A stretch of 64,000 nucleotides of DNA from NCBI GenBank assembly GCA_964395275.1, contig CAYNBQ010000002.1, positions 16,731 through 80,730 on the forward strand, read 5' to 3'. The stretch is from an uncultured Verrucomicrobiota bacterium. Lineage in GTDB: Bacteria; Verrucomicrobiota; CALLYA01; CAYNBQ01. A model generated the notes under the pieces. That model searched no databases, was not told the origin of the DNA, and saw nothing but the letters and a program-made list of their open reading frames with translations. Positions 6,532 to 48,770 of the stretch are shown here, in pieces (the stretch's first letter is position 1; each line of letters opens with the position of its first letter). Both the position numbers and the translations under genes were made by a program.

Positions 6532-7544
6532 CGGAACCGTTCGTCGATTTTCCCATCGTCCAGGAGACGTTCCAGCTGTTTCAGCCGCGTGTAGAGGGGG
6601 GATTCGAACGTCTCCCGGTCGAGCCGCCGGATCTGGAAGATGCGCAACAACTCGGCGGCGACGGTGTCGATGCGGTGATTGCATCGGAAATCCGGGAGCC
6701 GGGCCGCGATCTTGGCGAAGGAGACCCGGTAGCTCCGGTTGTCCGCCGAGGGCGGGCCGAAGGTCGTCTCGCACTCCGGGAAGACCGAGGCGACGATCCG
6801 CGCGATCTCGCGGACCCGGAAGTTCTGTTCGTCGTCGCCGACGTTGAAGATCTCTCCGCAGACATCTTCCGCCGGCGCCGCCAGGCAACAGGCGACCGCC
6901 TGGGCGATGTCCCGCAGATCGACCAGGGGACGCCAGGGACTTCCGTCGCTGATCATGCGCACGACATGTTCCACCCAGGCATGTCCCGCAAGATTATTGA
7001 GCACGAGATCGAACCGCATCCTCGGCGAAGGCCCGTAGGCCGTCGCGTTCCGGAGCAGGACCGGACAGAAACGATCGTCGGCCATCTCCCGCAGGGCGCG
7101 CTCGACCCGGAGCTTGCATTCGGCATAGACGGTCTGGGGCCGCGGTTCGGATTCCTCCGTCTTGACCTCGTCGCCGCCGGCCCCGTAGACGCTGCACGAC
7201 GAACTGTACACGAAGCGGCGGACGCCCGCCTCCTTCGCCGCACGCGCCAGCTTCACCGAGGCCTCGCAGTTGATTTCGCGGGTCACCTCGGGACGGAGCT
7301 GACCGAGCGGATCGTTCGACAACTCCGCCAGATGGACGACCGCGTCGAATCCGAGGAGGTCCGAGGGCGTCAGATCCCGGGTGTCGGCTCGGCGCACCGG
7401 CGGAACGCCCACCGGCTCCTCCACGAAGGCCGCCTCGCGGAAATAGCCGGCGTCGATCCCTTCGACCTCGTGACCGCACCCCACCAGGTGCGGCCCCAGC
7501 ATCGACCCGATGTAGCCCTCGGCACCGGTCAGAAGGATTTTCAT
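6492..7544 (-). CDS. NAD-dependent nucleotide-sugar epimerase/dehydratase (extended SDR)
   Basis: ORF 6492..7544. MKILLTGAEGYIGSML is a GxxGxxG motif, with YAECK catalytic YxxxK. UDP-glucose 4-epimerase-like, not a canonical 4,6-dehydratase. Confidence 0.8.
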   Translation of the reverse strand: MKILLTGAEGYIGSMLGPHLVGCGHEVEGIDAGYFREAAFVEEPVGVPPVRRADTRDLTPSDLLGFDAVVHLAELSNDPLGQLRPEVTREINCEASVKLARAAKEAGVRRFVYSSSCSVYGAGGDEVKTEESEPRPQTVYAECKLRVERALREMADDRFCPVLLRNATAYGPSPRMRFDLVLNNLAGHAWVEHVVRMISDGSPWRPLVDLRDIAQAVACCLAAPAEDVCGEIFNVGDDEQNFRVREIARIVASVFPECETTFGPPSADNRSYRVSFAKIAARLPDFRCNHRIDTVAAELLRIFQIRRLDRETFESPLYTRLKQLERLLDDGKIDERFRWIGGPPEDGSRS

Positions 7545-7580
7545 TGCGTCACGAACCGATCCGAAACCATGGCTGCGATC

Positions 7581-8352
7581 CTACCAGATCTTCCACGGCG
7601 CTTCCCCGCGATTCCAGAGTTCCTCGAGCATGTTCTTTTCCTTCAGCGTGTCCATGCAGGACCAGAACCCGTAGTGCCGATACCCCATCAGTTCCCCGTC
7701 GTGAGCGAGCCGCTCGACCGGCTCCCGTTCCCATATGGTGTCGTCGCCGTCGATATAGTCAAGCACTTTACGGGACAGGACGAAGAATCCGCCGTTGATC
7801 CAGCCTTCCCCCGCTTCGGGCTTCTCGTAGAACTCCGAGATGCGGTCCCCGTCGAAACGGATCCGGCCGAAGCGCGCCGGGTTCCGGACCGTCGTCACCG
7901 TCGCCAGCTTTCCGTGGGAGAGATGGAATCTCCAGAGGGAGCGGATGTCGATGTCCGCAACGCCGTCTCCGTAGGTGAACATGAAGGGCTCGTCCGGATC
8001 CAGCCAGTCCGCCAGGCGCTTCAGACGGCCCGCGGTCTGCGTGTAGAGGCCCGTATCCACGAGGTGCACCGTCCAGTCGGGACGGTCGTCCCCGTGGATC
8101 TCGACCGAACCGGCCGCCAGATCGACGGTCATGTCGTTGTTGATCTCGAGGTACTCGGCGAAGTAGCGCTTGATCACGTGTCCCTGGTATCCGAGGGCGA
8201 TGATGAATTCGCGCACGCCGTGGGCCGCGTAGATCCGCATGATGTGGGAAAGAATCGGCCGGCCGCCGATCTCGATCATGGGCTTGGGACGGGCCACCGT
8301 TTCCTCGGAGATCCGCGATCCGAATCCCCCCGCCAGTATCACGGCCTTCACG
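7581..8352 (-). CDS. rfbF: Glucose-1-phosphate cytidylyltransferase
   Basis: C-terminal 257 aa of ORF 7581..8606 from GTG at 8350-8352 (VKAVILAGGFGSRISEET...). A near-full-length RfbF signature, including the C-terminal GFWSCMDTLKEKNMLEELW. GTGA overlap with the sulfotransferase stop. Confidence 0.8.
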
Positions 8353-9439
8353 ACGCCTTCTCCTCTCCGTTTTTTCGCCCGCCCCCGGCGGCAGGCCCGG
8401 GCCCCTCTCTTCCCGACATGTCCCGGACCGCCCTGCGCAGACGATTGCGAAACCCCCGCGGCCCGGTTTGCGCCTCCAGGCTGCGGATCACTTCCTCCGG
8501 CAGTTCGTCCCGCAGCGCGCGGAAGGCCCGCCGGCGCCGGTTCCTCGACGGCGAAAGCAGGGTTGCCGGCGGCAGGGTCCAGCGCACGGCCGGCGACGAC
8601 GCCCACCAGCCCGGCTCCGCGTACCCGAGTTCGTTCAACAGATCCCCCGCCTGAAGGTGAACGCGATAACGCATCCCGGCCGTAAGCGATTCCTCCCAGC
8701 CGCCGGCCCGTCCCTTCCGGAAGAAGCCATCCGGCAGTTCGGTTCCCCCCGCGCTCTTGCCGCGGAGTTTCATTCGTTCAAACTCGTGTTCCCGGAGAAT
8801 GCGTTCCGCCTCCGGCCGGCCGACGGGCAGGCCGACGAAGTCGAAAAGCCCCCGGAGAACCTCGGTCCCGTTCTCGAGGAGATCCTCGTACCGGACCTCC
8901 ATGTACCGATCGCCGAAGCGCCGCGCCTTGCCGGCCTCCCTCGCGAAGGACGCCCAGGTCCAGGCCGCCTTCTCGACCTCGGAGGGGGCCCAGCGGCTGC
9001 CCCATCCCCTCGAGGCGGCCAGCAGCGAGGCGACCACGTCCCGGCCGTCGCGGATCACGTGCACGAAACGCACGTCCGGCCGGAGCCGGTCGATGTGTTC
9101 GGTGTGTCCCGAGTATCCGGGATGCTTGTCCACGAGGACCTCCGCGTCCGGGTTCGAGGCCAGCACCCGCGCGTAGGCGTCCCGCAGAAATCCCCGCAGA
9201 TACTCGAGAAACTCCGTTTCGCTCCAGAGCAGGGGCAATCCGAGCGGTCCGCCCTGCTCCTTCAGTTCGCATTGTTCCTCCCAGGAACGCATCCACGGAA
9301 CCGTATAGAGATTGAAGAGCATCAGCTCGGCCGAGGTGCAGACGCGCGGATGCGCCCCGAGCATCGACTGCACCCAGGTCGTTCCGCTCCGGGGCGCCCC
9401 AATCACCACCACCAGGCGGACGTCTTCCGCGGGGTTCAT
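8348..9439 (-). CDS. Sulfotransferase family protein (PAPS-dependent)
   Basis: ORF 8348..9481, trimmed to ATG at 9439 (MNPAEDVRLVVVIGAPRSGTTW). PRSGTTW is a 5'-PSB motif and RDGRDVVASL a 3'-PB-like motif. ATGA overlap with the wzt stop. Confidence 0.75.
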   Translation of the reverse strand: MNPAEDVRLVVVIGAPRSGTTWVQSMLGAHPRVCTSAELMLFNLYTVPWMRSWEEQCELKEQGGPLGLPLLWSETEFLEYLRGFLRDAYARVLASNPDAEVLVDKHPGYSGHTEHIDRLRPDVRFVHVIRDGRDVVASLLAASRGWGSRWAPSEVEKAAWTWASFAREAGKARRFGDRYMEVRYEDLLENGTEVLRGLFDFVGLPVGRPEAERILREHEFERMKLRGKSAGGTELPDGFFRKGRAGGWEESLTAGMRYRVHLQAGDLLNELGYAEPGWWASSPAVRWTLPPATLLSPSRNRRRRAFRALRDELPEEVIRSLEAQTGPRGFRNRLRRAVRDMSGREGPGPAAGGGRKNGEEKAS

Positions 9440-10728
9440 CCGCGCTCGGTTCCCGGCGGATCCGTTCCGCCGTTTTCCCATCGGTAATCCACGAAGACCC
9501 CCGGTTGGCCCGGGGCGGGGATGATCCCCGTTCCGTAGTAGTCGCCGGCCTCGGTTGTCAACACCCCCGCCTCGGTGACCCAGTCCAGGGGGCGTTCCCC
9601 CTTTTCAGCGAAGAGATCGTAGACGTATCTGCCGGCCTTCAGCGGCCAGCGGTCGAGCACGCATTCGGTCGCGCCCCGGCCCGGCGGGAGGCGCAGGACC
9701 CTGCCGATGGCGCGGCTGCGGCAGGTGAACATCCGCCCGCCGTCGGGCGTCGCGAAGGCGATCCCGATGCCGACGTCATCCAGTCCGTCGGGGGCCCGGC
9801 ATTCGTAATGGATCCGGATCCGGACGGGGGACCCGGAAATCAGGGTCGTGGTGGCCGTTTCGCTGGCGGAATCGATGAACTCCACCCGGAGGAAGCGGAA
9901 ATCCTCGCCCCCCTGCCGGTCCTCTCTCGCGCCCAGGTCGGTTTCGAAGGAATCCTCGACCGTGCGCAGGTAATGCGTCACGGCGTCGCGCGCCGCGCCT
10001 TCGAAGACCAGCCGTCCCGAGTCCAGGACGATCGCGCGGGTGCAGAGCGACTGCACGGCGAGCATGTTGTGGCTGACGAACAGGACCGTCCGCCCGGATC
10101 GGGCCACGTCTCCCATCTTGCCCAGGCAACGCCTCTGGAAGGAGGCGTCGCCGACGGCCAGGACCTCGTCGACCAGGAGGATCTCCGGTTCCAGATGCGC
10201 GGCCACCGCGAAGGCGAGCCGCACGTACATGCCGCTCGAATACCGCTTCACGGGCGTGTCGAGAAAGCGGTTGATCTCGGCGAAGGCCACGATCCGGTCG
10301 AATTTCGCGGCGATCTCCTCGCGCGTCATGCCGAGGACCGCCCCGTTGAGAAAGATGTTCTCCCGCCCCGTCAGTTCGGGATGGAAACCGGTCCCCACCT
10401 CCAGGAGGGAACCGACCCGCCCGCGGATCGTCGCCCGTCCCGCGGAGGGTTCCGTGATGCGCGAAAGAATCTTCAGCAACGTGCTCTTTCCCGCGCCGTT
10501 GCGGCCGATGATCCCCAGCACCTCGCCCCGGGGCACGTCGAAGGTCAGGTCCTTCAAGGCCCAGAGACGCTCCCCAGGAAGCGTTCCACGCACCGCGATC
10601 GCGATGTTGCGCACCGGGGAACGGACGAATCGCCTCAGGGAATCCCTGAGGCTTCGCGAGGCCTCCCGCCGGGCCCCGATTCGATACCATTTCCCGAGGC
10701 CGTCGACCGAGATGGCCGGAAGGTTCAT
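9436..10728 (-). CDS. wzt: Polysaccharide ABC exporter ATP-binding protein (Wzt/TagH type) with C-terminal glycan-binding domain
   Basis: ORF 9436..10728. Walker A GRNGAGKST, ABC signature YSSGM, Walker B LLVDEVLAVGD, plus about 170 aa of C-terminal extension. Confidence 0.85.
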   Translation of the reverse strand: MNLPAISVDGLGKWYRIGARREASRSLRDSLRRFVRSPVRNIAIAVRGTLPGERLWALKDLTFDVPRGEVLGIIGRNGAGKSTLLKILSRITEPSAGRATIRGRVGSLLEVGTGFHPELTGRENIFLNGAVLGMTREEIAAKFDRIVAFAEINRFLDTPVKRYSSGMYVRLAFAVAAHLEPEILLVDEVLAVGDASFQRRCLGKMGDVARSGRTVLFVSHNMLAVQSLCTRAIVLDSGRLVFEGAARDAVTHYLRTVEDSFETDLGAREDRQGGEDFRFLRVEFIDSASETATTTLISGSPVRIRIHYECRAPDGLDDVGIGIAFATPDGGRMFTCRSRAIGRVLRLPPGRGATECVLDRWPLKAGRYVYDLFAEKGERPLDWVTEAGVLTTEAGDYYGTGIIPAPGQPGVFVDYRWENGGTDPPGTERG

Positions 10729-10759
10729 GGCGCGGATCGCCGGTTGCGCCGGGCCCCCT

Positions 10760-11644
10760 TCAAAGGAGGTCCACGATCGTTCGTTCCGTTCTCCGGAAGA
10801 TCATCATCCCGCTGAGCAGCAGGACCAGTACGATGGCCGCCGAGGCGAGCATCAGGATTCCGGGCGCGGTGCCCTTGCCGTAGACCGACCATCGGAACCC
10901 TTCGATCACCCAGAACATCGGGTTGAGTTTGTAGATCCAGAAGAGATGAGGAATCCGGTCGGCCACCGCGCCGGCCGTATAGACGACCGGGGTGGCGAAC
11001 TTCCAGACCTCGAGACCGTTCCGAACGGCGAATCGAAGGTCGCGATAGCGTACGGCGAGCGTGGCGCCCCACAGGCCCACCGCGAGGGCCGTCGCCATGG
11101 CCAGCAGAACGAAGACCGGGATCATCAGGAGTTCCCAACCCTGGATCACCACTTCGCCCCGGGCGACGTAGTACGCCATCATCCCCACCAGGACGATCAT
11201 CCGGGCCCCGAGATCGACGAGACCCGCGATGACCGCGCTGAAGGGAATGACCAGCCGCGGGAAATAGACCTTGGAAATGACCGGCATCGCCGCCACCAGG
11301 CTGTTCACCGACGCGTTGGCCGCCTGCGCGAAGTATCCCCACGGCAGCAGCGCCGTGTAGACGAAAAGCTGGTAGGGAACGCCGTCGCTCGAAAGGCGCG
11401 CCAGCTTTCCGAAGATGATCGTGAAGACGACCATGTCGATGATCGGCTGGATCAGGATCCAGAGCGGCCCGAGCGCCATCTGGCGATAGCGGGCCTTGAT
11501 GTCCCGCATCGTCAGGAACCACAGAAGTTCCCGGTACTGCCAGAGTTCGCCGAGCCCGAGGTTCGCCCAGCCCCGCGTGGGTTGGATCCGGATCGTCGGG
11601 GTCGCTTCCGCGGCTCGCCCTTCTGTCGTTGCGGTCGTGTTCAT
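10760..11644 (-). CDS. wzm: ABC-2 type polysaccharide exporter permease (Wzm/KpsM)
   Basis: ORF 10760..11644. ABC-2 permease signature (RDIKARYRQMALGPLWILIQP...) with 6 predicted TM helices. Confidence 0.85.
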   Translation of the reverse strand: MNTTATTEGRAAEATPTIRIQPTRGWANLGLGELWQYRELLWFLTMRDIKARYRQMALGPLWILIQPIIDMVVFTIIFGKLARLSSDGVPYQLFVYTALLPWGYFAQAANASVNSLVAAMPVISKVYFPRLVIPFSAVIAGLVDLGARMIVLVGMMAYYVARGEVVIQGWELLMIPVFVLLAMATALAVGLWGATLAVRYRDLRFAVRNGLEVWKFATPVVYTAGAVADRIPHLFWIYKLNPMFWVIEGFRWSVYGKGTAPGILMLASAAIVLVLLLSGMMIFRRTERTIVDLL

Positions 11645-11687
11645 TCGAAATTCCGCTCTGGATCCCGGCGCGGGGGATCGCCCGATT

Positions 11688-12650
11688 CTACCCGTTCTGC
11701 GACGGCGGGCGATGCTTCAGAAACCAGTCGCAGGTCCGACGCAAGCCCTCGTCGAAGGAGGTCGAGGCCTCGAATCCGAAGCGTTCCCGGGCCCGGGTGA
11801 CGTCGAGACATCGGCGCGGCTGCCCGTTGGGTTTGTCCCGGTCCCATTCGATGCTCCCTTCGAACCCGGTCAGTTCCCGGATCGTTTCCGCCAGATCCCG
11901 GATCGAGATCTCCATTCCCGAGCCGAGGTTCACCGGTTCCGCTTCGTCGTATCGTTCCGCGGCCAGCAGGAGGCCCTCGGCGCAGTCCTCCACGTAGAGA
12001 AACTCGCGCGTCGGACTCCCGTCGCCCCAGAGAACCACCGAATCGCGGCCTTCTTCGCGGGCTTCGACGAACTTGCGGATCATCGCCGGAATGACGTGGC
12101 TCGTTTCCAGATCGAAGTTGTCCCGCGGTCCGTAGAGATTCACCGGCAGCAGGTAGATCGCGTTCATCCCGTACTGCCGGCGGTAGCTCTGCGCCAGCAC
12201 GAGAAGCATCTTCTTCGCCAGGCCGTAGGGGGCGTTCGTCTCCTCGGGATACCCCTTCCAGAGATCTTCCTCGCGGAAGGGCACCGGCGTGAATTTCGGA
12301 TAGGCGCAGATCGTCCCGACCAGGACCACCTTCTCCACCCCCGTCCGGCGGGCCGCCTCGATCAGGTGCACCCCCATCTCCAGGTTGTCGTGCGCGAACA
12401 ACCCCGGGTTCTCCCGGTTCGCCCCGATTCCGCCGACCCGCGCCGCTAGGTGAAAAACGATCTGCGGACGGGTCTCCTCGAAGAGACGAAACGTCGCCTC
12501 CTGGGAGGTCAGGTCCCATTCCCGGCTTCGAGGGACCAGCACGTCCCGGGCGCCCCGTTTGCGCAGTCCCTCCACCAGATGCGATCCGAGAAACCCGGAT
12601 CCGCCCGTGACCATCACGCGCAAGTCGCCCCAGCCGTTCCGCATCTTCAT
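11688..12650 (-). CDS. fcl: GDP-L-fucose synthase (GDP-4-keto-6-deoxy-D-mannose 3,5-epimerase/4-reductase)
   Basis: C-terminal 320 aa of ORF 11688..13025 from [25 protein letters not shown]. Fcl family (...[15 protein letters not shown]...PYGLAKK). ATGA overlap with the gmd stop. Confidence 0.85.
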
Positions 12651-13726
12651 CGGGGATCCCCCTGCCCGGCGGCCACCGCGGCGGAGGAGATCTTCTCGCG
12701 TTCGGCCAGCCGCGCGTCCGCGTCGGTCATGATCGCCACCAGCTGTTCGAAGTCGACGGTCGGTTTCCAGCCGAGTTTCGAGCGGATCTTCGATGCGTCT
12801 CCCTGCAGCAGATCCACTTCGCTCGGACGGAAATACCGGGGATCGATCTCGATGAGAACCCGTCCCGTCTTCCGTTCGAGACCCCGTTCCTCCGCTCCCT
12901 CCCCTTCCCACACGAGGGGCAGACCGACCCTCTCGAAGGCGAGTTCGCAGAACTCGCGTACGCTGTGGGTCTCGCCGGTCGCCACCACGTAATCGTCCGG
13001 TTCGTCCGCCTGGAGGATCCGCCACATCGCCTCGACGTAGTCCTTCGCGTATCCCCAGTCCCGGCGCGCGTCCAGGTTCCCCAGGTACAGCCGGTCCTGC
13101 AGCCCGTAACGGATCCTCCCGGCCGCCCTCGTGATCTTCCGCGTGACGAAGGTCTCCCCGCGCCGGGGCGACTCATGGTTGAAGAGGATGCCGTTGGCCG
13201 CGAACATCCCGTAGGCTTCGCGATAGTTCCTCGTGACGAAGAAGCCCAGGGCCTTGGCCGCCGCATACGGGCTGCGCGGGTAGAAGGGCGTCGTTTCGGT
13301 CTGAGGCGTCTCCAGAACCTTCCCGTACAGCTCCGACGACGAGGCCTGGTAGAAGCGCGCATCCAGCCCCAGTTCGCGCATGGCTTCCAGGATCCGGATC
13401 ACCCCCACCCCCGTCACCTCCGCGGTATATTCCGGGATCTCGAAGGACACCTTGACGTGACTCTGTGCGCCGAGGTTGTAGACCTCGTCGGGCCGCACCG
13501 TTTTCAGGATCCGGTTCAACGAGGAGGCGTCGTTCAGATCGCCGTAGACGAGATTCAGACGCCGGCGGACCACATGGGGATCCTGGTAGATGTGGTCGAT
13601 GCGCGACGTGTTGAACGAAGACGACCGCCGGACGATTCCCCAGACCTCGTACCCCCTGGCCAGCAGAAGTTCCGCCAGGTACGATCCGTCCTGGCCGGTG
13701 ATTCCCGTCACCAACGCCTTCTTCAC
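12647..13726 (-). CDS. gmd: GDP-mannose 4,6-dehydratase
   Basis: ORF 12647..13792, trimmed to GTG at 13724-13726 ([22 protein letters not shown]). Canonical Gmd sequence (...[11 protein letters not shown]...SPYAAAK...[11 protein letters not shown]). Confidence 0.9.
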
Positions 13727-14123: not shown

Positions 14124-16409
14124 TCACGAAGGAGCCGAAACCTCCTTCTCGTCGGCCTCCGCCGCGGTCGTCGAGGCCGGCGTCTCCCTGCTCGAACGCC
14201 TCTTCTTCCTCTTGCGGACCCGCCGCTTCCGACGTTCGCCGTCGCCGTAGTAGGAATCGTGATAATAGGCGTAGTAATAGTAATAGGCGCCCGAGTTGAC
14301 GTTGATCCGGTTCAGAACGGCTCCGGCGATCCGCGCCCGCGCGTCGATCAGCCGGTTGATCGTGCGCACGATCAGCTTCTTGCGCACCTTGCCGAACTGC
14401 ACGATGAGCATCGTCGCATCGACCCGCCGGCTCAGGATCAGCGAATCGGCCACCGCGCTGATCGGCGGCGTATCCAGCAGCACCCTGTCGAACGATTCTC
14501 CCACCTCGGCCAGGAACCGGGCCATCTCCTGCGATGCCAGCAGTTCCCCCGGGTTCGGAACCGTGGCGCCCACCGTGCAGAGCCAGAGGTTCTCGATTCC
14601 CGTCGGTTGACAGACGTCCGTGACGGCCGATTTCCGTCCCTGAAGGTAGTCCGACAGGCCGCCCGAACGGGATACGCCGAAAATCCTGTGCAGCGACGGA
14701 CGCCGGAGATCCGCATCGACCAGCAGCGTCCGGGAACCCGCCTGGGCATAGGCGATCGCGAGGTTCGAAGAGATCAGGGACTTCCCCTCGCCCGGTCCCG
14801 CGCTGGTGATCACGATCCGGCGGCAGGCGGCCTCGTCGTCCTCCTCGAAACCGAGGGCCGCGCGCAGCGTCCGGAAGGACTCCGCGGCGGTCGTCTGGGA
14901 ATGCTTTTCGACGAGCCGGTCACGTTCCTCGTCCGGCAGGTTGTCCACGGCCGGAATCAATCCGAGGAACGGCACGCTCAGAACCTTTTCGATGTCCTCC
15001 TGGGACTTGATCCGGTCGTCGAAGGCGTTGAGCAGGAAGATCAACCCGAGCCCGCTGAGCAGGCCGAATCCCGTCGAGGCGAGGATGATCCGGGGACGGT
15101 CCGGTTTCGTCGGGCGCGCCGGGGGGCGGGCTTCGGAGACGATCTGGACGTTGTTGACCTCCATCTCGCCCGCGATCTCCGCCTCCTCCATCCGTTTCAG
15201 CACGGCGTTGTAAAGGGCCTCGAGCGTGTTCGCGCGGCGCTGGAGGATGTCGAATTCGACCCGTTTGCGGTCGATCTCCATCGCCTTGCGCTCGGTTTCC
15301 CGGAGGGTGCGGGTCAGCTCCTCTTCGCGCGCCCGGACCATCTCGTAATCCGCGCGGGCCCGTTGCAGGAGCTTTTCCGCCTCGGACCGGAGCTGCTGTC
15401 GGACCTTTTCCAGTTCGGCCTTGGCCTCGATGACGTCCGGATGCTTGTCCAGAAACCGTTCCTGCAACCGCGCCAGGGCCGCTTCCCGGTCGTTGACCTG
15501 CACCCGCAGCCTTTCCAGGGTGGCCGCGCCCGGAATTCCCGCCGGGATGGAATCGAGACCTCCGCCCGCGGCCAGGAGGCGGCTCAGTTCGTTGTAGGTG
15601 TTCTCCTTCTTGATCAGTTCCGTGCGGGCCTGGGTGACGGCGCTGTTCAGCTGGCGCAGTTCCTGCAGAACGATGTCCTTGCGATCCTCCAGGGAGATCG
15701 TCTTCTGCTCCGCCTTCAGATCCTCCAGGGCCATCTCGCGCTGGGCGACCTGGGCCTCGAGATTGGTCGCCATGCTCGCCAGCCAGCTCAATCCCTCGTG
15801 CGCCCGCGTCATCCGGTTCTGCAGGTTCTGCTCGACGTAGTTGCGCAGCAGGGAATTGGCGATCGTCGCCGCCAGCACGGCGTCCGCCGACTGGGCGTAG
15901 ACGTCGATCAGCTGGCTGTTGGCCACCGGACGGATCCGGATCGAATCCCGAATGAGCTGGCGGTCCCGCGCCCGGCGTCCCGCGTCGGTCGAAAGGTCCG
16001 GACCGAGATGGAAGAGCCGTTCGAAGAATCCCCGGTCGATGTTCGGATAGTTCTTCCGGACCCGTTCGATTTCCTGCTGCACCTCCGGATCGTCCAGCAC
16101 GAGATCGACCATCGCGCCGCTCTGCAGGATGCGCAGCTGGCTGTTGAAGAACTGGTTGAACTGCTGCGGGGTGGCGGGTTCCGGCACGCTGCCCTTGATG
16201 TCGGCCGGACGGGGAGGATTCATCAGGATTTCCAGCTGCGCCACGGCCACGTATTCCGGAACGGCCATCACGCAGTAGGCGACCGACAGCGCCACGGCCA
16301 GGAAGAGCGTTACCCCCAGGATCCAGATCCGCTCCCGGATGATCCGCAGGTAGTCGTACAACGACAGCCCCGGCTCCGGCACGTAGTAACGTTCCGCTTC
16401 CGCCGGCAT
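14124..16409 (-). CDS. Polysaccharide co-polymerase / BY-kinase fusion (Wzc/GumC-like) with Tyr-rich C-terminal tail
   Basis: ORF 14124..16508. N-terminal Wzz/PCP domain (TM, long coiled coil, second TM). C-terminal P-loop kinase domain with Walker A SAGPGEGKS and VLLDTPPIS. Tail SGAYYYYYAYYHDSYYGDG followed by a Lys/Arg-rich end. Start is either ATG 16409 (RBS-like GGAG upstream) or GTG 16508. Confidence 0.8.
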   Translation of the reverse strand: MPAEAERYYVPEPGLSLYDYLRIIRERIWILGVTLFLAVALSVAYCVMAVPEYVAVAQLEILMNPPRPADIKGSVPEPATPQQFNQFFNSQLRILQSGAMVDLVLDDPEVQQEIERVRKNYPNIDRGFFERLFHLGPDLSTDAGRRARDRQLIRDSIRIRPVANSQLIDVYAQSADAVLAATIANSLLRNYVEQNLQNRMTRAHEGLSWLASMATNLEAQVAQREMALEDLKAEQKTISLEDRKDIVLQELRQLNSAVTQARTELIKKENTYNELSRLLAAGGGLDSIPAGIPGAATLERLRVQVNDREAALARLQERFLDKHPDVIEAKAELEKVRQQLRSEAEKLLQRARADYEMVRAREEELTRTLRETERKAMEIDRKRVEFDILQRRANTLEALYNAVLKRMEEAEIAGEMEVNNVQIVSEARPPARPTKPDRPRIILASTGFGLLSGLGLIFLLNAFDDRIKSQEDIEKVLSVPFLGLIPAVDNLPDEERDRLVEKHSQTTAAESFRTLRAALGFEEDDEAACRRIVITSAGPGEGKSLISSNLAIAYAQAGSRTLLVDADLRRPSLHRIFGVSRSGGLSDYLQGRKSAVTDVCQPTGIENLWLCTVGATVPNPGELLASQEMARFLAEVGESFDRVLLDTPPISAVADSLILSRRVDATMLIVQFGKVRKKLIVRTINRLIDARARIAGAVLNRINVNSGAYYYYYAYYHDSYYGDGERRKRRVRKRKKRRSSRETPASTTAAEADEKEVSAPS

Positions 16410-16553
16410 CGCCGGCACGACTCCGTCCAGGGCGTCGCCTCGATTCTCACTCACTCCCGCAACTCCTTCGCGACCTCTCGATCCGCGTTTCCGCCGACCC
16501 CGATCCACCCGGCCGGCGCATGCGCCGGCCCGGGGAAAACCGCCGGCGAACCC

Positions 16554-17288
16554 CTAGAAGAAGGTTTCCGGAACCCTCACGATATCGCCCGGCGTCAACT
16601 GCAGATCCTCCTGATCGCCGTTCACGATCCGGTCGAAGTTGACCTTGATCCGACGGCGCTTCCCGTCCTCGCCGATGCGCGTGACCTGGATCCGGGTTCT
16701 CGCGGCCGTTTCGGTGAACCCGCCGGCCGCCGCGATCAGGTCCATCAGCCCGATCGATTTCCTCCCGGGCGGCAGCGTCACCGGCCCCGGTTTCCGGACT
16801 TCGCCGAAGACGGGAATCGACAGCATGCTGACCGTTCCCTGCCTCGGCTGGATCTCCACGGTCACCTGGGGATTCTTCAGATATCCGTCGGCGAGCTGCT
16901 GCGCCAGGGTCTGTTCGATCTCGTACTTCGTCTTCCCGATCACGAAGACCCGGCCGATCAGGGGAAGGTTGATCGTTCCGTCCGTGTCGACGATCGGGTT
17001 CCCGTTCAGCCGGGCCTCCTGGAAAACCCTCACGGAGACGACGTCCCCGGCGCGGACCCGGTAGAGTTCCGTCGTATCCGGCGTTTCCGTCGGATTGCCG
17101 GTCTGTGCGCCCGGTTCCGCGCCCGACTCGACGACGGCGGCCTCCCCGTCCGCGCCTCCCGTCGGCGCGCCCTGCGCCGGAACCGAGGGAGGAAGGTCCT
17201 CAGAGACGCAGGATGCGAGCAGACAGGCCAGAACGGTCGCTGTCAGCACCGACGACGACATACGGCGGAAACAATCGATCTTCGTCAT
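16554..17288 (-). CDS. Polysaccharide export lipoprotein (Wza/GumB family, SLBB domain)
   Basis: C-terminal 244 aa of ORF 16554..17723 from MTKIDCFRRMSSSVLTATVLACLLASC (lipobox). YRVRAGDVVSVRVF...NPIVDTDGTINLPLIGRV is the polysaccharide-export N-terminal domain, with C-terminal GDIVRVPETFF. Confidence 0.8.
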   Translation of the reverse strand: MTKIDCFRRMSSSVLTATVLACLLASCVSEDLPPSVPAQGAPTGGADGEAAVVESGAEPGAQTGNPTETPDTTELYRVRAGDVVSVRVFQEARLNGNPIVDTDGTINLPLIGRVFVIGKTKYEIEQTLAQQLADGYLKNPQVTVEIQPRQGTVSMLSIPVFGEVRKPGPVTLPPGRKSIGLMDLIAAAGGFTETAARTRIQVTRIGEDGKRRRIKVNFDRIVNGDQEDLQLTPGDIVRVPETFF

Positions 17289-17487: not shown

Positions 17488-19449
17488 CTACTCCCGCGCG
17501 ACTTCCAGTCTGTGGGGCGGGACGATCCGAAAGGCGTTGACCGCCTCGATGTATCCCTCCGGATGACCTGTGTCGTAACGGCGCCCCTGCGTTTCATAGG
17601 CCAGGAAGCCCTCGCGGCGGCGGATCTCGTCGAGGGCCGTCGTGAGCTGGAATTCCCCTCCCTCGCGGCGGTCCGTGCGGACCATTTCCTCGAGAACCTC
17701 GAAGATCGAGGCATTGAGAACATACTGCCCGAAGATCGTGTAGTACTCCCCGGGACCGAGTTCCTCGCACCGCAGGTATTCCCGGGCGTAGTCGATCGTC
17801 GGCTTCTCGGCGAAGCGGGTCACCCGGTGGATCGCGGGATCCGCTTCGGACCGTTCCACCGATACCGTGCCGAACTGTTCGATCCGTTCTTCCGGCGTCC
17901 GCTGGACGGCCAGCGTGTTGGCCTGGTGGCGTTCGTACATGTCGAGGAGCTGCCGCGCGCAGGGCACCTGCGACTCGGATACGTAGACGTGGTCCCCCAG
18001 CATCAGCAGGAAGGGTTCGTCGCCGACCCATTCCCGCGCGGTCAGGACCGCGTGGCCGAATCCCTCCTGCCGTTCCTGAACGATGAAGGTCAGTCGGCGC
18101 CCGATCTCGGGAAGACGGTCGAACTGCTCGCGGGCGGCCGGGGAAAGGTCCCCGGACCCGTCGATCGGCGACTGGAAATACCGCAACAGATCCTCTTCGT
18201 CCCCGGGACGGGTGATGATGCAGATCTCCTCGATTCCGGATTCGAGGGCCTCTTCGATGATGATCTGCAGGACGGGTTTCACGACGCCCGTTCGATCCAC
18301 CACCGGGAACATCTCCTTCTGCACGCCCTTGGTCACCGGGTAGAGCCTCGTGCCGGATCCGGCTGCGGGGATCACCGCCTTGCGCACCCGCCGGCCGGCC
18401 GGGATCCGGATCTTCAACCCCTCCAGCCCCAGTTCCGTCCACAGGATTTCGACGACGCGATCCTGGGCCTCCTCGTCTTCCACCAGGAACTGGGCGCATC
18501 CGTCCCCCTGGGACCCGACGCCCTTGCCTCCGAGCACATGGGGCCGGATGCGGGGATCGGCCAGGACCCTGTGCAGAACGGGCGCTTCGAGTTCCCTGGG
18601 GCATGCGGGGATCATGGCCCGGTCGAAAGCGGCCTGGGCCCGGTCCATCAGGGCGCCGACGGCGCGCAGATCCCCGCGTTCGATCGCCTCGCGGGCCTGC
18701 CGGACGATCTCCCGGTTCTCGGCCCCGAGATAGCGGCGAACGGCCTCCGGGACGGGTCCTTCCGCGTTCGGATAACATGCGTTGAGATCGGCGAGGATCC
18801 GGAGCGTGTCCTTGCCCGCCTTCAGGTCCACCACGACGAGAAAGAGATCCGCCCCGGGCGTGATCGTCTCCACCAGGATGTTTTCCCCGTCGAACGTCAG
18901 AAGGGTCGGCCGGTTCCCGTATGCGCAGGCCTGGTCGAGCCGTCCGCATCGCGACGGCGTCAGGATCTCGCCCCGGTAGGCCTTCTCCATCTCGCCCCGG
19001 ATGGTCATGCGCAGCTCGTAGAGACGGTTGAACGCGCGCGCCACCAGCACGCAGATCGCCGCGGACGACGACAACCCCTTCTTCATCGGCAGGTCGGTCC
19101 GGTAATTGTCGATCTCGATCCCGCGCACCCGGTGTTCGACGAGGATTTCGTGGGCCACGCCCGCCGCGTAACTGAAGAAATCCCCCCGGGAAGCCGCCTC
19201 CCGCAGGGCCCGCTCTTCCATCGGAACGTCGAAAGGCTTCGTCCGGGTTCCGTCCGGCAGCGTGGATCGCAGAATGAAACGGTCCGGATGCGGACGCACC
19301 TTCGCGTAGATGCCCTGATTCGTTCCGGTGACGATGGCGTAGCCCGGCTCGATCGACTCGTCCACGCGCCGGTAGCCCGCGGCCCAGTCCGAATGTTCCC
19401 CGAAAAGGCAGAGCCGGCCGGGGACGAAGAGTTGCACTTCCTCAGGCAT
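17488..19449 (-). CDS. Bifunctional sugar-1-kinase (GHMP family) / UTP-sugar-1-phosphate uridylyltransferase (GalU-like) fusion
   Basis: ORF 17488..19449. N-terminal GHMP-kinase domain (PGRLCLFGEHSDWAAGY, PMKKGLSSSAAICVLVARAF) and C-terminal nucleotidyltransferase domain (RKAVIPAAGSGTRLYPVTKGVQKEMFPVVD..., strongly GalU-like). Confidence 0.8.
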   Translation of the reverse strand: MPEEVQLFVPGRLCLFGEHSDWAAGYRRVDESIEPGYAIVTGTNQGIYAKVRPHPDRFILRSTLPDGTRTKPFDVPMEERALREAASRGDFFSYAAGVAHEILVEHRVRGIEIDNYRTDLPMKKGLSSSAAICVLVARAFNRLYELRMTIRGEMEKAYRGEILTPSRCGRLDQACAYGNRPTLLTFDGENILVETITPGADLFLVVVDLKAGKDTLRILADLNACYPNAEGPVPEAVRRYLGAENREIVRQAREAIERGDLRAVGALMDRAQAAFDRAMIPACPRELEAPVLHRVLADPRIRPHVLGGKGVGSQGDGCAQFLVEDEEAQDRVVEILWTELGLEGLKIRIPAGRRVRKAVIPAAGSGTRLYPVTKGVQKEMFPVVDRTGVVKPVLQIIIEEALESGIEEICIITRPGDEEDLLRYFQSPIDGSGDLSPAAREQFDRLPEIGRRLTFIVQERQEGFGHAVLTAREWVGDEPFLLMLGDHVYVSESQVPCARQLLDMYERHQANTLAVQRTPEERIEQFGTVSVERSEADPAIHRVTRFAEKPTIDYAREYLRCEELGPGEYYTIFGQYVLNASIFEVLEEMVRTDRREGGEFQLTTALDEIRRREGFLAYETQGRRYDTGHPEGYIEAVNAFRIVPPHRLEVARE

Positions 19450-19494
19450 CGCGCCGCTTCCTCCCGATCCGGCCGATCCGAACCGTCCGTCGCA

Positions 19495-20553
19495 TCACGT
19501 CGCCTCCGGCACGGGGGTTTCCCAGACGCGCAGCCCCATGCGGCTCAGGTAGATGGGAATGCTCTGGAAGAGGGGGTTTTCCTCCTTGATCCGCGAGATC
19601 ATGGCGCGTTTCGAGGCGGCCTCCGGACCGCAGAGGATGGAAACGGATCCGCCGTCTCCTCCGGCGCCGTTGACCTTCCATCCCACGGCGCCGTGTTCGC
19701 GGGCGATCTCGATGATCCTGTGCGCGTCGGCGCTGACCAGGTCCGGATGCAGATTCGCCTGCGCCTCGGTGTTCTCGATCATCGACTTCCCCAAGGCCAG
19801 GAAGTCTCCCGTCAACAGCGCGTCCTTCGCCTTGTCCGCCGTCCGCCTCAGCGCCTCCAGGCGGGGAGCGTCCGGTCCCTCCCCTTCCAGATCCCGGATG
19901 ACCTTCTCGTGGACCTTCGAAGAACTGTGCGCCTTGCCCGCGAAAATCAGCACCAGCCGCCGCTCGAGTTCCCACCAGATCGAGTTCGGCACATGAAGCT
20001 GCGAAACGACCGCCTGAGGATAACGCTCGATCTCGATGTAGCAGATCCCCCCGTAGGCCGAACAGAGTTGATCCTGGACTCCGCACTGCTGCTTGAGTTT
20101 CTCCGTCTCGATGGCGTGCGCCGTGCGGGCCACCTGGTGGGGCGTCATCGTCCCCGGCGTCAGCCGGTCCAGCGCCCCGATCAGGGCGACCGTGACCGCC
20201 GCCGACGTCCCGGTCGAGCAGCCTCCCGGCGCCTCGGAATAGATGTTGACCTCGATGGCCAGGTCTTCCGGCACGCCCATCATCTCGATCGCGGCCTCCA
20301 GCAGGGGGTGCTTGTCGTAGATGCCCGGTTCCTCCATGCCGACGACGAATCGTTCCCCGTAGTTCTCGGCGTGAACCACCACCCGTTCGCGGCTTCCGTC
20401 GTTCGGAAAGACCTTCATCTGGACCTCCGCATACGGATAGACCGCGATGTTGAAGATCCTTCCCCTCTCCGCGAACCAGGTGTCGGTCCAGCCCCCGTTG
20501 TCGCAGATCCTCATGGGCGCCACGGTGTTGACGATGCGAATCGGACTGCTCAT
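19495..20553 (-). CDS. GHMP-family sugar kinase (HddA / D-glycero-D-manno-heptose 7-phosphate kinase-like)
   Basis: ORF 19495..20553. APMRICDNGGWTDT and APGGCSTGTSAAVTVALIGAL are GHMP ATP-binding motifs. Confidence 0.75.
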   Translation of the reverse strand: MSSPIRIVNTVAPMRICDNGGWTDTWFAERGRIFNIAVYPYAEVQMKVFPNDGSRERVVVHAENYGERFVVGMEEPGIYDKHPLLEAAIEMMGVPEDLAIEVNIYSEAPGGCSTGTSAAVTVALIGALDRLTPGTMTPHQVARTAHAIETEKLKQQCGVQDQLCSAYGGICYIEIERYPQAVVSQLHVPNSIWWELERRLVLIFAGKAHSSSKVHEKVIRDLEGEGPDAPRLEALRRTADKAKDALLTGDFLALGKSMIENTEAQANLHPDLVSADAHRIIEIAREHGAVGWKVNGAGGDGGSVSILCGPEAASKRAMISRIKEENPLFQSIPIYLSRMGLRVWETPVPEAT

Positions 20554-20612: not shown

Positions 20613-21008
20613 CTACGCTTCATGGAGGCCGTCGTCGACGGTCGGCGATTCGGAACCTCCCCCGTCGTGCAGGACCGATTCCATATCCGCCTCGACCTGC
20701 TCCGGATCCTCGCCCCTTTCGACCCGATCCAGGGCCTCTTCGAACCGCGGATCGAATCTCTCCCCCGCCTCCCGGCCGATCTCGCGCATCATGCGGGCCA
20801 GGATCCGCCGATCCGCCGTCCCCTCGTTCGCCTCCGCGGAATCGGCCGGCGCGCTGTGCCCGCGCGCCGGGGTGAAGCGCGAGGGCCGACGTTCCAGCCT
20901 CGGACGCCCGCACCGCGGGCAGGAAGGCGGACCGTGCCCGCGGACGTTGCGCACCAGGAAGGAAAAGATCCGGTTGCAGGAAGCGCAGTAATACTCGTAG
21001 ATCGGCAT
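20613..21008 (-). CDS. FmdB-family zinc-ribbon protein
   Basis: ORF 20613..21032, trimmed to ATG at 21008. MPIYEYYCASCNRIF...CPRCG is a CxxC...CxxC ribbon. Confidence 0.7.
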   Translation of the reverse strand: MPIYEYYCASCNRIFSFLVRNVRGHGPPSCPRCGRPRLERRPSRFTPARGHSAPADSAEANEGTADRRILARMMREIGREAGERFDPRFEEALDRVERGEDPEQVEADMESVLHDGGGSESPTVDDGLHEA

Positions 21009-21117
21009 GGATCCTCTCTCCCGCCCGTGCAACTATCCCCTTCGCAACCCCCTGATTTCAAGCCCGCGCCGGACCCGCCATGTTCGGCCGCCGCTCCGAA
21101 TCCCGAGGAAATCCGCA

Positions 21118-23235: not shown

Positions 23236-23940
23236 CTACCCGCGCCGGCGGCGGAACAGGGCCAGGCCCGCAACGCCCAGAAGCGCCATCGTGGCCGGTT
23301 CCGGAACGTTCGAGACGCCCGGCGTATCGACCGCGTCGGCCGAGGCCGGATCGAACTCGCCGATCCGCCAGGCCGAGAAATCGGCGCCGTTCGACAGGCG
23401 ATACGCGTGGGCCGGCACGTAGCTTCCGTCCGGTCCCAGGGCGTCCGCGTAGTACTTGTCTCCCGTATCGACCGTTTCGATCAGGGAGATGGCGTCGATG
23501 ACGTCCGCCCACGGCGTCACGTCCAGCACGCCGTCGTCGTCCGTGTCGAGATCGTCCCCGTTGCTCCCCGCAAACTCCGAAACGAGCATGTGGGTCACGT
23601 TGTCGCTGTTCTCGAAGTTGATGCTCGTGGTGAGATCCACCTGGGCGGGAGCCAGGCTGAACGTGCTCTCGGCCGCGAGGAAGAATCCGTCGCTCGGAAT
23701 CGACAGACCCGCCAGACCGATCACCGCTTCGATCACACCGCTGCCGCCCGAGCCGTCTCCGATGACCAGGTAGGTCAGGTCATCCAGCGAGTCGCCCGGC
23801 GTACCCGCGATTTCGAAGTACTCGTCGTTGTCCGTTCCCGCCTGGTCGATCCGGATCTCGTTGATCTGGATCGCCGCGGGGGCGGAAACCGCGATCGCAA
23901 CGACCAGCAGTGCCATGAGCGTGAGATGCCTTTTCATCAT
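23236..23940 (-). CDS. Secreted lamin-tail-domain (LTD) protein with C-terminal PEP-CTERM sorting signal
   Basis: ORF 23236..23940. Signal peptide, LTD-like IQINEIRIDQAGTDNDEYFEIAG, and C-terminus VPEPATMALLGVAGLALFRRRRG (PEP motif, TM helix, Arg cluster). Confidence 0.75.
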   Translation of the reverse strand: MMKRHLTLMALLVVAIAVSAPAAIQINEIRIDQAGTDNDEYFEIAGTPGDSLDDLTYLVIGDGSGGSGVIEAVIGLAGLSIPSDGFFLAAESTFSLAPAQVDLTTSINFENSDNVTHMLVSEFAGSNGDDLDTDDDGVLDVTPWADVIDAISLIETVDTGDKYYADALGPDGSYVPAHAYRLSNGADFSAWRIGEFDPASADAVDTPGVSNVPEPATMALLGVAGLALFRRRRG

Positions 23941-48692: not shown

Positions 48693-48770
48693 TGGGGTGA
48701 GCGAGGGGACTCGAACCCCCGACCTTCAGGGCCACAACCTGACGCTCTAACCACCTGAGCTACGCCCACC
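48693..48770 (-). tRNA. tRNA-His (anticodon GTG) with genome-encoded G-1 and 3' CCA
   Basis: Reverse complement reads G-GTGGGCG-TA-GCTCAGGTGGTTAGAGC-G-TCAGG-TTGTGGC-CCTGA-AGGTC-GGGGGTTCGAGTCCCCT-CGCTCAC-C-CCA. The cloverleaf has a 7-bp acceptor stem, and an extra 5' G pairs with discriminator C73, which is specific to tRNA-His. Confidence 0.85.

Follow-up and report, generated by a model that had tools for sequence, protein, structure and literature searches.

Introduction

Whether one bacterial protein may take a free sugar to its UDP-sugar in two consecutive steps, and on which sugar it would act, is the question raised by a fusion gene in the window (the whole stretch of DNA analysed, 64,000 nucleotides from an uncultured Verrucomicrobiota bacterium). 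The original prediction, made from the sequence alone, had read this gene as a sugar-1-kinase followed by a GalU-type nucleotidyltransferase. Few enzymes are known that carry a free sugar to an NDP-sugar on a single polypeptide (FKP/FKGP and GKUP), and chemoenzymatic glycan synthesis draws heavily on them. FKP combines a GHMP anomeric sugar kinase and a sugar-1-phosphate nucleotidyltransferase and forms the NDP-sugar in two steps; its 949-aa chain begins with the pyrophosphorylase, ends with the kinase and includes a long helical linker as well as a beta-helix subdomain (PMC11982464). Zebrafish GKUP (glucuronokinase/putative UDP-glucuronate pyrophosphorylase) is a natural combination of a GHMP kinase and a short bacterial-type nucleotidyltransferase, and forms a UDP-sugar (PMC3938481). 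These two were the only natural kinase/pyrophosphorylase examples named, with none reported for xylose, in a study of a two-enzyme UDP-sugar salvage by GalK and Glc-1-P uridylyltransferase of Solitalea canadensis, from which GalK-GPUT chimeras were engineered (PMC11267548). In the literature we found no paper characterising a kinase-first GalK-like/GalU-like fusion, and no biochemistry on any member of the family described here.

Results

Reading frame and domain organisation

The ORF read of the window gave an uninterrupted frame of 653 aa from ATG to TAG, which fills exactly the interval listed in Table 1. Pfam recognised both domains in this frame, GHMP_kinases_N (E 1.2e-9) spanning aa 95-178 and NTP_transferase (E 2.1e-28) spanning aa 357-638, and the motif KAVIPAAGSGTRLYPVTK...KEMFPVVD, quoted earlier for the second half, was present. 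The gene thus encodes a single protein made of a galactokinase-like sugar kinase and a GalU-like enzyme, in line with the claimed GHMP-GalU fusion, with no frameshift or stop between the domains. A scan for promoters and terminators around the gene gave nothing above background; its sole promoter-like match fell in the interval separating the fusion from the Wza-like gene, and its sole terminator-like match inside the ORF.

Table 1. Coordinates of the fusion gene, its parts and its neighbours in the window.
Feature	Position	Strand	Evidence
Wzc-like chain-length/tyrosine-kinase protein (Wzz, GNVR, ParA/CbiA P-loop)	14124..16508	(-)	Pfam
Wza-like polysaccharide export lipoprotein (Poly_export + SLBB), 200 nt downstream of fusion	16554..17288	(-)	Pfam
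Fusion gene: GalK-like GHMP kinase + GalU-like uridylyltransferase	17488..19449	(-)	ORF, domains, full-length homologs
GalU-type nucleotidyltransferase domain, aa 354-641	17527..18390	(-)	NCBIfam, Pfam, Foldseek, YngB contact mapping
Short interdomain linker, aa ~346-353, ~8 residues	18391..18414	(-)	Gap between domain boundaries
Kinase domain, aa 1-345	18415..19449	(-)	Alignment, profile vs PDB, AF2 model, Foldseek
Ribosome-binding-like GGGAGGAAG, 7 nt upstream of fusion ATG	19457..19465	(-)	Read from sequence
Stand-alone GHMP kinase, HddA/WcbL/fucokinase type, 352 aa, 45 nt upstream of fusion	19495..20553	(-)	Pfam, GGWTD motif
Zn-ribbon protein, head of same-strand gene run	20613..21032	(-)	Pfam; syntenic in L003

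The kinase half is closest to galactokinases

The GHMP motifs reported for the N-terminal half (aa ~1-345) were recovered, with PF00288 scoring 38.7 bits (cutoff 22.3). Motif II (P-x-x-x-G-L-x-S-S-A) was present, and GLSSSAA (G125-L-S-S-S-A-A131) was invariant across 25 homologs together with P10-G11-R12, G17-E18-H19, D21-W22 and C168-G-R-x-D172-Q173. The segment G307-G-K-G-x-G-S-Q-G-D-G317 was mostly invariant in the same 25, Q314 being replaced by Gly in one.

Searches by profile and by structure led to the same relatives. With the kinase-half profile, the Pyrococcus galactokinases 1S4E and 2CZ9 were the best matches in the PDB (1.8e-14), and mevalonate kinases came third (7e-8). When a kinase-only AF2 model (pTM 0.81) was compared by Foldseek, all 50 listed matches were GHMP kinases, in keeping with the two-domain GHMP fold, ranks 1-13 were all galactokinases, and mevalonate kinases appeared from rank 14. 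In the profile alignment PGRVNLIGEHTDY matched the family pattern PGRxCLFGEH[ST]DW, and the galactokinase N-terminal signature G-R-x-N-L-I-G-E-H-x-D-Y was found as PGRLCLFGEHSDWAAGY, aligned to PGRVNLIGEHTDYTYGY of 1S4E. The catalytic-base motif C-G-x-x-D-Q was likewise found, CGRLDQ aligning to CGILDQ of 1S4E/2CZ9 (PfGalK Asp151); the role of this Asp is documented for D217 of yeast Gal1p. We take R12, E18, H19, D21 and D172 to be the galactokinase positions for galactose binding and the catalytic base.

With galactokinases (P. furiosus 1S4E, L. lactis 1PIE, human GALK1) the fusion has in common PGRxxLxGEHxD[YW] as motif I, GLSSSA as motif II, CGxxDQ around the catalytic Asp and, at a TM of about 0.72, the fold, but it is only ~20% identical to them, has an unusual motif III (GGKGVGSQGDG) and carries an attached transferase. 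It also fell below all curated galactokinase cutoffs (TIGR00131, 37.1 vs 226.65; PRK03817, 45.5 vs 443; PF10509, 16.9 vs 23.1), the NCBIfam galactokinase models scoring at most 45.5 against cutoffs of 226-499, and by sequence HMM alone mevalonate-kinase and galactokinase models scored about equally. In the profile sequence alignment the galactokinase Tyr stretch (S-E-Y-N-x-R-R; Tyr200 in the "SSEY" of PfGalK) had no counterpart in the family, its place being occupied by an invariant D-L-x-x-x-K-(D)-T. Because of this replacement, recognition of C3/C4 may differ from that of galactose.

None of the FKP and fucokinase models or structures matched the kinase half; FKP matched the stand-alone neighbour kinase only. 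Neither GNPSD nor GGWTD occurred in this half in the alignment of 25 homologs; we take the former to mark the Arabidopsis glucuronokinase type and the latter the fucokinase type to which the FKP kinase presumably belongs. The kinase half is therefore a GHMP kinase nearest to galactokinases in both sequence and structure, and not a mevalonate, homoserine, glucurono- or fucokinase, which agrees with the earlier expectation that it would fall outside the mevalonate and homoserine types.

The transferase half is of the GalU type

The best NCBIfam model for the C-terminal half was GalU TIGR01099 (1e-57, aa 355-636), with 195.7 bits against an equivalog cutoff of 326.8. This half was 30-35% identical to solved UGPases, and the assignment to the GalU type was upheld by superposition on GalU-UDP-glucose structures, Foldseek giving UDP-glucose-bound H. 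pylori GalU (3JUK) at E 1.6e-24 and a target TM of 0.88. It carries the loop G-x-G-T-R-x-x-P-x-T-K, Q458/G463, D486-H487, G527 and E548-K549-P550. When mapped onto the YngB contact list (PMC7961091), residues A363, G364, K378, E379, Q458, G463, D486 and K549 corresponded to YngB A13, G14, K28, E29, Q105, G110, D133 and K192, and the mapped uridine, Mg and phosphate contacts were invariant or nearly so in the fusion family. Three of the four glucose contacts of YngB were also kept (G172 as G527, E191 as E548, V204 as I572). The fourth, YngB D134, is replaced by His487, which was invariant among the 25 homologs; none of 40 divergent fused representatives had Asp there, the residue being H, T, Q, V, Y or F.

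Like bacterial GalU/UGPase (H. pylori 3JUK, B. subtilis YngB 7B1R), this half has the fold (TM up to 0.88), the nucleotide loop, the Mg-binding Asp, the EKP lysine and most sugar contacts; it differs in its score below the TIGR01099 cutoff, in the change of Asp134 to His487 and in two family-specific insertions, one of 5 residues after VVD and one of about 10 after EKP. Judged from these residues, it is a GalU-type UTP:sugar-1-phosphate uridylyltransferase with all nucleotide, Mg and phosphate positions intact. His487 was considered as a sign of an acidic sugar and rejected, since G-D-H presumably also occurs in ADP-glucose pyrophosphorylases, which use glucose-1-phosphate.

The fusion is a widespread family

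Full-length relatives, drawn from more than 120 protein clusters, were found in no fewer than 542 species-representative genomes, mainly of Poribacteria, Chloroflexota and the PVC phyla, at 52-58% identity and in one case 71%. Carriers include the cultured Pontiellaceae strain B1224 (L053) and complete Poribacteria genomes such as OZ242351.1 and OY762266.1. The active-site motifs of both halves were invariant in an alignment of 24 full-length homologs (53-71% identity). A matching ORF was present in each of the 82 related loci analysed (median 640 aa), and the interdomain junction ...RVRKAVIPAAG was kept in all of them, in independent assemblies from many phyla. The kinase came first in 40/40 fused representatives classified, and the predicted reversal with respect to the fucokinase fusion was confirmed, FKP and zebrafish GKUP both starting with the pyrophosphorylase and ending with the kinase. 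The fusion thus belongs to a large, conserved, automatically annotated family and is not peculiar to the source genome.

Related arrangements of the same domains were also observed. In one unfused pair (L089/L090) the kinase gene (41% identity) is directly followed by the transferase gene (32% identity), the end of the one overlapping the start of the other, and the transferase shares the insertions and the LGDH motif of the fusion family. In a single observation the same kinase subfamily (46% identity) was fused to a GalE domain (curated GalE model 375 bits, cutoff 262). A stand-alone member sits among GT7, GT11, GT25 and GT92 genes, which we take to be mostly galactose-handling families. The transferase half of this clade was never found alone.

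Genomic neighbourhood

A second GHMP kinase and EPS export genes had been described beside the fusion, and Pfam supported both. The stand-alone kinase scored 89.5 bits with the NCBIfam HddA model (cutoff 600), and its best solved structures were WcbL and HddA (about 5e-21). The start codon of the Wza-like gene was set at MTKIDCF, the beginning of a lipoprotein-like signal peptide. The stand-alone kinase and the EPS-export neighbours recurred only in the locus of the 71%-identical relative (L003) and were absent from the other 81 loci analysed; this association is lineage-specific and not family-wide.

The fusion gene is usually solitary among housekeeping genes. Clustering of the ORFs of the 82 loci gave no partner gene common to the whole family, and no transporter, glycosidase or GalE was found in these loci as a conserved neighbour hinting at the sugar. 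The clusters obtained reflected lineage-specific synteny (e.g., in Poribacteria) or opposite-strand shadow ORFs of the fusion gene, and the neighbourhood was rejected as a clue to the sugar. A UDP-xylose-synthase/ArnA-like SDR gene directly adjoins the fusion in four PVC genomes (4/80 loci), is truly orthologous in these loci only and scores below every NCBIfam cutoff; it was kept just as weak support for another sugar.

Discussion

Proposed function

From the domain identities, catalytic residues, conservation and domain order, which were observed directly, we infer both activities, their coupling, the use of UTP and the sugar. We propose, with a probability of about 0.65, that the fusion is a bifunctional salvage enzyme converting a free neutral hexose to hexose-1-phosphate and then to UDP-hexose. 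The N-terminal galactokinase-like domain would transfer a phosphate from ATP to the anomeric hydroxyl of the free hexose, giving alpha-hexose-1-phosphate, which the C-terminal GalU-like domain would convert with UTP to UDP-hexose and pyrophosphate. On this reading the two halves go back to neighbouring genes, a kinase followed by a transferase. A true GalE occurs elsewhere fused to this kinase subfamily; for this reason galactose is our leading candidate, at somewhat less than even odds, followed by glucose or another neutral hexose. Given GalE and a reversible transferase, such an enzyme would link galactose and glucose-1-phosphate independently of GalT. Across the family the fusion behaves as a stand-alone, housekeeping-like gene; in the source genome, where it lies at the edge of a surface-polysaccharide locus, it probably also feeds that locus.

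Alternative explanations

The strongest competitor, which we consider improbable yet worth keeping in view, retains both steps and changes the substrate to a pentose (xylose or arabinose), an N-acetylhexosamine or a uronic acid, with a product such as UDP-Xyl, UDP-GalNAc or UDP-GlcA. The sugar pocket does depart from the canonical one, both in the missing Tyr motif of galactokinases and at His487, where the residues H/T/Q/V/Y of divergent fusions suggest several specificities, and pairs of bacterial GalK and Glc-1-P uridylyltransferase can salvage xylose (PMC11267548). The UDP-xylose-synthase/ArnA-like neighbour of the four PVC genomes points the same way, but was seen in just 4 of 80 loci. 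Against such a substrate, the residues E18/H19, whose galactokinase counterparts bind the C6 hydroxyl, do not vary in the fusion family; plant galacturonokinase presumably lacks that Glu, and plant arabinokinase the Glu-His pair. The glucuronokinase and fucokinase motifs are missing from the kinase half, and the His presumably present at the D134 position of ADP-glucose pyrophosphorylases, which use glucose-1-phosphate, would leave room for a hexose.

The two halves could instead be uncoupled, the GalU-like half being an ordinary UDP-glucose pyrophosphorylase fed by phosphoglucomutase and the kinase-like half having a regulatory, sensing or unrelated catalytic role. Purely regulatory galactokinase paralogs exist (e.g., yeast Gal3p), bona fide UGPases are closest to the transferase half, and both the usual position of the gene alone amid housekeeping genes and its unusually strong conservation across phyla (52-58% identity) would fit such a role. 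We think this distinctly less probable than a change of substrate. Every catalytic and ATP-binding motif of the kinase is invariant, which argues for an active kinase; this kinase and this type of transferase also occur side by side as overlapping genes, and the kinase is found fused to GalE, a pattern typical of consecutive pathway steps; and the transferase differs from housekeeping GalU by its family-specific insertions and its altered sugar-contact residue.

We hold it very unlikely that the N-terminal half has a non-sugar substrate, as a mevalonate or homoserine kinase would, and that no sugar salvage takes place at all. The best single NCBIfam match of this half was indeed TIGR00549 (51.3 bits, against 45.5 for galactokinase), and automatic names of relatives in the sources include 'mevalonate kinase', but the score is far under the cutoff of 163 and galactokinases came first in both profile and structure searches. 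By comparison with mevalonate kinases, R12, D21 and CGRxDQ appear to be galactokinase features. Nor would it make sense for GalE or a sugar-1-phosphate nucleotidyltransferase to be fused to a mevalonate kinase. Finally, an artefactual ORF, produced by frameshift or misassembly of two adjacent genes such as the unfused kinase and transferase genes known in other organisms, is effectively refuted by the uninterrupted architecture and conserved junction in 82/82 loci from independent assemblies.

Comparison with known enzymes

The proposed salvage enzyme for neutral hexoses resembles FKP in joining a GHMP sugar kinase and a sugar-1-phosphate nucleotidyltransferase in a single polypeptide. Unlike FKP, which uses GTP and fucose, it is kinase-first and GalK-like, with a compact GalU-type transferase, a linker of ~8 residues and a total of 653 aa. 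Zebrafish GKUP differs in its N-terminal pyrophosphorylase domain and its glucuronokinase-type kinase, and is known from eukaryotes only; the kinase half of the fusion belongs to neither of the two subfamilies, fucokinase and glucuronokinase, found in FKP and GKUP. A parallel in design is the GalK-uridylyltransferase chimera recently built by hand for such activity (PMC11267548). Chimera and fusion share the kinase-linker-transferase order and, as predicted, the same chemistry, but the Solitalea enzymes come from separate natural genes joined artificially, whereas the fusion is natural and its activity is predicted.

Significance

The fusion overturns no concept, and its chemistry could be foreseen from its domains. 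If the proposed function is true, it would be a third, independently evolved architecture for the kinase/pyrophosphorylase logic, and the family would offer compact candidate biocatalysts, possibly varied in sugar specificity. A more far-reaching and speculative reading, which we hold to be doubtful, is that the family is the main, so far unrecognised route from free sugar to its UDP form in several large, mostly uncultured phyla, including Poribacteria, Anaerolineae, Planctomycetota, Kiritimatiellia, Lentisphaerota and Sumerlaeota. In one version a single protein would take the place of the Leloir steps for galactose, independently of GalT, and in another the family would act, as anomeric kinase and pyrophosphorylase, on a sugar for which no salvage enzyme is known. 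The H/T/Q/V/Y residues at the sugar-contact position would then represent a radiation of specificities, and family members would be ready-made catalysts for one-enzyme UDP-sugar synthesis. For the organisms themselves, the proposed function, if true, could explain how a hexose is recycled or catabolised without the classical Leloir transferase in many polysaccharide-degrading uncultured phyla.

Domain Organization of the Fusion

The fusion is encoded by one 653-aa open reading frame, in which Pfam places GHMP_kinases_N at residues 95-178, preceded by a weak galactokinase signature (residues 8-26), and NTP_transferase at residues 357-638, as expected for the two-domain polypeptide of the original prediction. 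Its best NCBIfam model overall was GalU TIGR01099 (195.7 bits, residues 355-636), and models for mevalonate kinase (51.3 bits) and for galactokinase (45.5 bits) gave weak matches to the kinase half; all three scores fall below the curated cutoffs.

Coordinates of the fusion and of other features in the window and in related loci
Feature	Position	Strand	Remarks
Fusion gene	17488..19449	-	Single ORF, ATG to TAG, 653 aa
Ribosome-binding-like sequence GGGAGGAAG	7 nt upstream of fusion ATG	-	Read from sequence
Stand-alone GHMP kinase	19495-20553	-	352 aa; ends 45 nt upstream of fusion; GGWTD motif
Surface-glycan locus	4661-13025	-	Downstream of Wzc-like gene
Epimerase	11688-13025	-	
Wzm ABC-2 permease	10760-11644	-	
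Wzt ATPase	9436-10728	-	Wzt_C domain
Sulfotransferase	8348-9481	-	
Second NTP_transferase	7581-8606	-	Nucleotidyltransferase
SDR epimerase/dehydratase-family gene	6492-7544	-	
C-methyltransferase	5227-6888	-	
RmlC-like 3,5-epimerase	4661-5230	-	
PEP-CTERM protein	23236-23940	-	C-terminus VPEPATMALLGVAGLALFRRRRG
Long ORF	41275-46605	-	1776 aa
tRNA-His(GTG)	48693-48769	-	
SDR gene beside fusion, L046	7943-8938		
SDR gene beside fusion, L027	7941-8882		
SDR gene beside fusion, L070	5008-5982		
SDR gene beside fusion, L071	1567-2565		
GalE-kinase P0202, L085	8001-10163		MFC1760909.1, 720 aa
HldE-like/kinase/transferase operon, L089	2271-10809		

The transferase half shares 30-35% identity with bacterial UGPases of solved structure (YngB, 2e-44; H. 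pylori GalU, 8e-41), and in a full-length model (pLDDT 84) it superposes on UDP-glucose-bound H. pylori GalU with a TM of 0.88. When the published contact residues of YngB (PMC7961091) were transferred by sequence alignment, the uridine contacts (A363, G364, K378, E379, Q458, and G463) proved conserved, as did D486 (the Asp that binds Mg), K549 (the Lys at the diphosphate), and, of the four glucose contacts, G527, E548, and I572. The fourth, Asp134 of YngB, corresponds to His487, which is invariant in the fusion's clade (alignment of 25 members); in 40 more divergent fused representatives the residue here is one of H, T, Q, V, Y, or F, never Asp, a variability which hints that sugar specificity may have diversified across the fusions. 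The alignment with YngB also revealed family insertions of 5 residues after VVD and ~10 residues after EKP.

A profile built from 11 kinase halves, searched against all PDB sequences, matched best the galactokinases of P. furiosus (1S4E, 1.8e-14) and P. horikoshii (2CZ9, 1e-11), with Leishmania mevalonate kinase (7e-8) and homoserine kinase (4e-5) lower. In the profile alignment, PGRVNLIGEHTDYTYGY pairs with PGRxCLFGEH[ST]DWAGGY, and CGILDQ (Asp151 of PfGalK) with the family's CGRxDQ. When the kinase half was modelled by itself with AlphaFold (pLDDT 80, pTM 0.81) and compared with the PDB, galactokinases (Pyrococcus, Lactococcus, human, and Bifidobacterium) took ranks 1-13, the first mevalonate kinase rank 14, and the heptokinase WcbL rank 30. 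Residues R12, E18, H19, D21, D172, and Q173 are invariant across the family (25 members), and presumably match the anomeric-hydroxyl Arg and Asp of GalK and the Glu, His, and Asp holding the other hydroxyls; the catalytic-base role of Asp is known from yeast Gal1p (D217). Galactokinases thus came first in both searches, and on these comparisons the kinase does not fall within the mevalonate or homoserine kinases. Yet it is only ~20% identical to any galactokinase, an invariant D-L-x-x-x-K-(D)-T replaces the 'SSEY' stretch of PfGalK with its conserved galactose-contacting Tyr, which has no counterpart in the profile alignment, and motif III (GGKGVGSQGDG) is unusual. Therefore, the kinase half is not a GalK ortholog but a separate subfamily of the GHMP superfamily, on the side of the galactokinases.

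Related Architectures and Proposed Function

The kinase profile, run with HMMER against all 1.84 billion representatives, gave 498 clusters at E<=1e-30. Among the best 150, which were classified, 40 were kinase-then-transferase fusions and none had the reverse order; 54 were stand-alone kinases of ~350 aa, and the remainder were other architectures or fragments. Some other representatives carried eukaryote-type N-terminal domains (RING, SET, Ysc84).

Two human gut metagenome loci (L089 and L090) carry the pair unfused and in the same order: a stand-alone kinase (41% identical), whose stop overlaps the start of the next gene, and a separate 292-aa transferase (32% identical) that shares the family's insertions and LGDH motif. 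Their operon also holds an HldE-like protein (PfkB and cytidylyltransferase), with overlap or direct abutment among the operon's first three genes; further members are a 720-aa protein with a protein-kinase domain, a dNK/thymidylate-kinase-like gene, a GT9 heptosyltransferase, and a carbamoyltransferase. In P0202, from Planctomycetota, the kinase (46% identical, all motifs intact) is fused to a GalE domain that passes the curated model TIGR01179 (375 bits against a cutoff of 262), in a glycosyltransferase-rich locus adjoining GT2/GH2-like, GT4, hexapeptide acetyltransferase, and ABC exporter genes. In P0152 (719 aa), the kinase's partner is a glycosyltransferase-like DUF4422 domain at the C-terminus. 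On a 24-kb marine metagenome contig (L086), a stand-alone member lies amid GT7, GT11, GT25, and GT92 genes, families that mostly transfer or decorate galactose; this contig, which also encodes an XPG/FEN nuclease, a RING finger, DUF5760, and DUF5824, looks viral, of giant-virus type.

The best-supported reading, to which we assign a probability of about 0.65, is that the fusion is a coupled two-step enzyme from free neutral hexose to UDP-hexose, its domains joined from an ancestral operon. The kinase domain would phosphorylate the anomeric hydroxyl using ATP, and the GalU-like domain would convert alpha-hexose-1-phosphate and UTP into UDP-hexose and pyrophosphate; joining of the two genes may have prevented sugar-1-phosphate build-up. 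Galactose is favoured by the GalE fusion, by motifs of galactokinase type, and by the retained O6-binding Glu-His pair; given the missing Tyr motif and His487, the sugar may instead be glucose or another. A substrate of a different sugar class is unlikely; the same two departures would accommodate it, and the invariant hydroxyl-binding residues speak for a neutral hexose. Less probable again are uncoupled domains with a housekeeping UGPase as transferase half, a role that its UGPase similarity would fit, set against the recurrence of the pair in fused and unfused form. Action of the kinase half on a non-sugar is very improbable, mevalonate and homoserine kinases being matched below galactokinases in the profile search.

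Distribution and Conservation

A protein search yielded full-length relatives (637-659 aa) in at least 120 clusters, each with both Pfam domains, one 71% and the others 53-58% identical to the fusion, bearing only automatic names ('GHMP kinase', 'sugar phosphate nucleotidyltransferase', 'UTP-glucose-1-phosphate uridylyltransferase/mevalonate kinase'). With one genome scanned per species, at least 542 encode a relative, chiefly in Poribacteria and Chloroflexota/Anaerolineae, and further in Planctomycetota, Verrucomicrobiota, Kiritimatiellae (Pontiella), Lentisphaerae, Sumerlaeota, Latescibacteria, Fibrobacterota, Spirochaetota, Gemmatimonadota, and Omnitrophota. A matching ORF occurs in 82/82 related loci analysed (median 640 aa), and the 25-member alignment averages 70% identity per column, with a conserved interdomain junction, ...RVRKAVIPAAG. 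Therefore, a frameshift or misassembly joining the domains is ruled out, and an artefactual ORF can be dismissed.

Gene Neighborhood

The fusion lies in a same-strand run of Zn-ribbon, HddA/WcbL-like kinase, fusion, Poly_export/SLBB (Wza-like), and Wzz-GNVR-P-loop (Wzc-like) genes, the last two downstream of it, so that by Pfam the second GHMP kinase and EPS export genes are present as claimed. The neighbouring kinase is of HddA/WcbL heptokinase or fucokinase type (best structures WcbL and HddA, ~5e-21), its score of 89.5 falling well short of the HddA equivalog cutoff (600), and among the 82 loci it adjoins the fusion only in the window's own lineage. The run extends into a large surface-glycan locus, whose combined gene content suggests a sulfated, C-methylated deoxysugar polysaccharide with ABC-transporter export alongside Wza/Wzc. 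Near this locus is a protein with a PEP-CTERM sorting signal, which implies an exosortase system in the organism. Elsewhere, the sole Rfam or ARAGORN match in the window is tRNA-His(GTG), just downstream of which lies a very long, strongly coding-like ORF (GC3 0.87).

The gene arrangement around the fusion is shared with L003, the locus of the 71%-identical relative; beyond it, none of these neighbours recur in the other 81 loci, and no partner gene common to the family emerged when all flanking ORFs were clustered de novo. The EPS association is therefore lineage-specific, and the family as a whole has the character of a free-standing metabolic gene; the relative in L001 sits amid aconitase, peroxiredoxin, and polyamine genes. 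An SDR gene directly adjoins the fusion gene on the same strand in four PVC-group genomes, with dTDP-glucose dehydratase, UDP-xylose synthase, and ArnA as closest NCBIfam models, below all cutoffs.

Comparison With Known Fusions

The natural precedents, FKP (PMC11982464) and zebrafish GKUP (PMC3938481), have the pyrophosphorylase first and a fucokinase-type or glucuronokinase-type kinase, respectively, last, whereas here a kinase of the galactokinase-side subfamily comes first, the opposite of the Bacteroides-type order as originally noted. A 2024 paper on engineered GalK-uridylyltransferase chimeras named only FKP and GKUP as natural kinase/pyrophosphorylase examples, and stated that a natural bifunctional enzyme for xylose is not known (PMC11267548). 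No characterised kinase-first GHMP-GalU protein was found in the literature, an absence that is not proof since most subscription journals lay outside the search. The fusion is real, the original interpretation is supported, and it represents a third architecture among kinase/pyrophosphorylase salvage fusions. Its chemistry is predictable; its interest lies in the breadth of the family, its sugar specificity, and its direct biocatalytic relevance.
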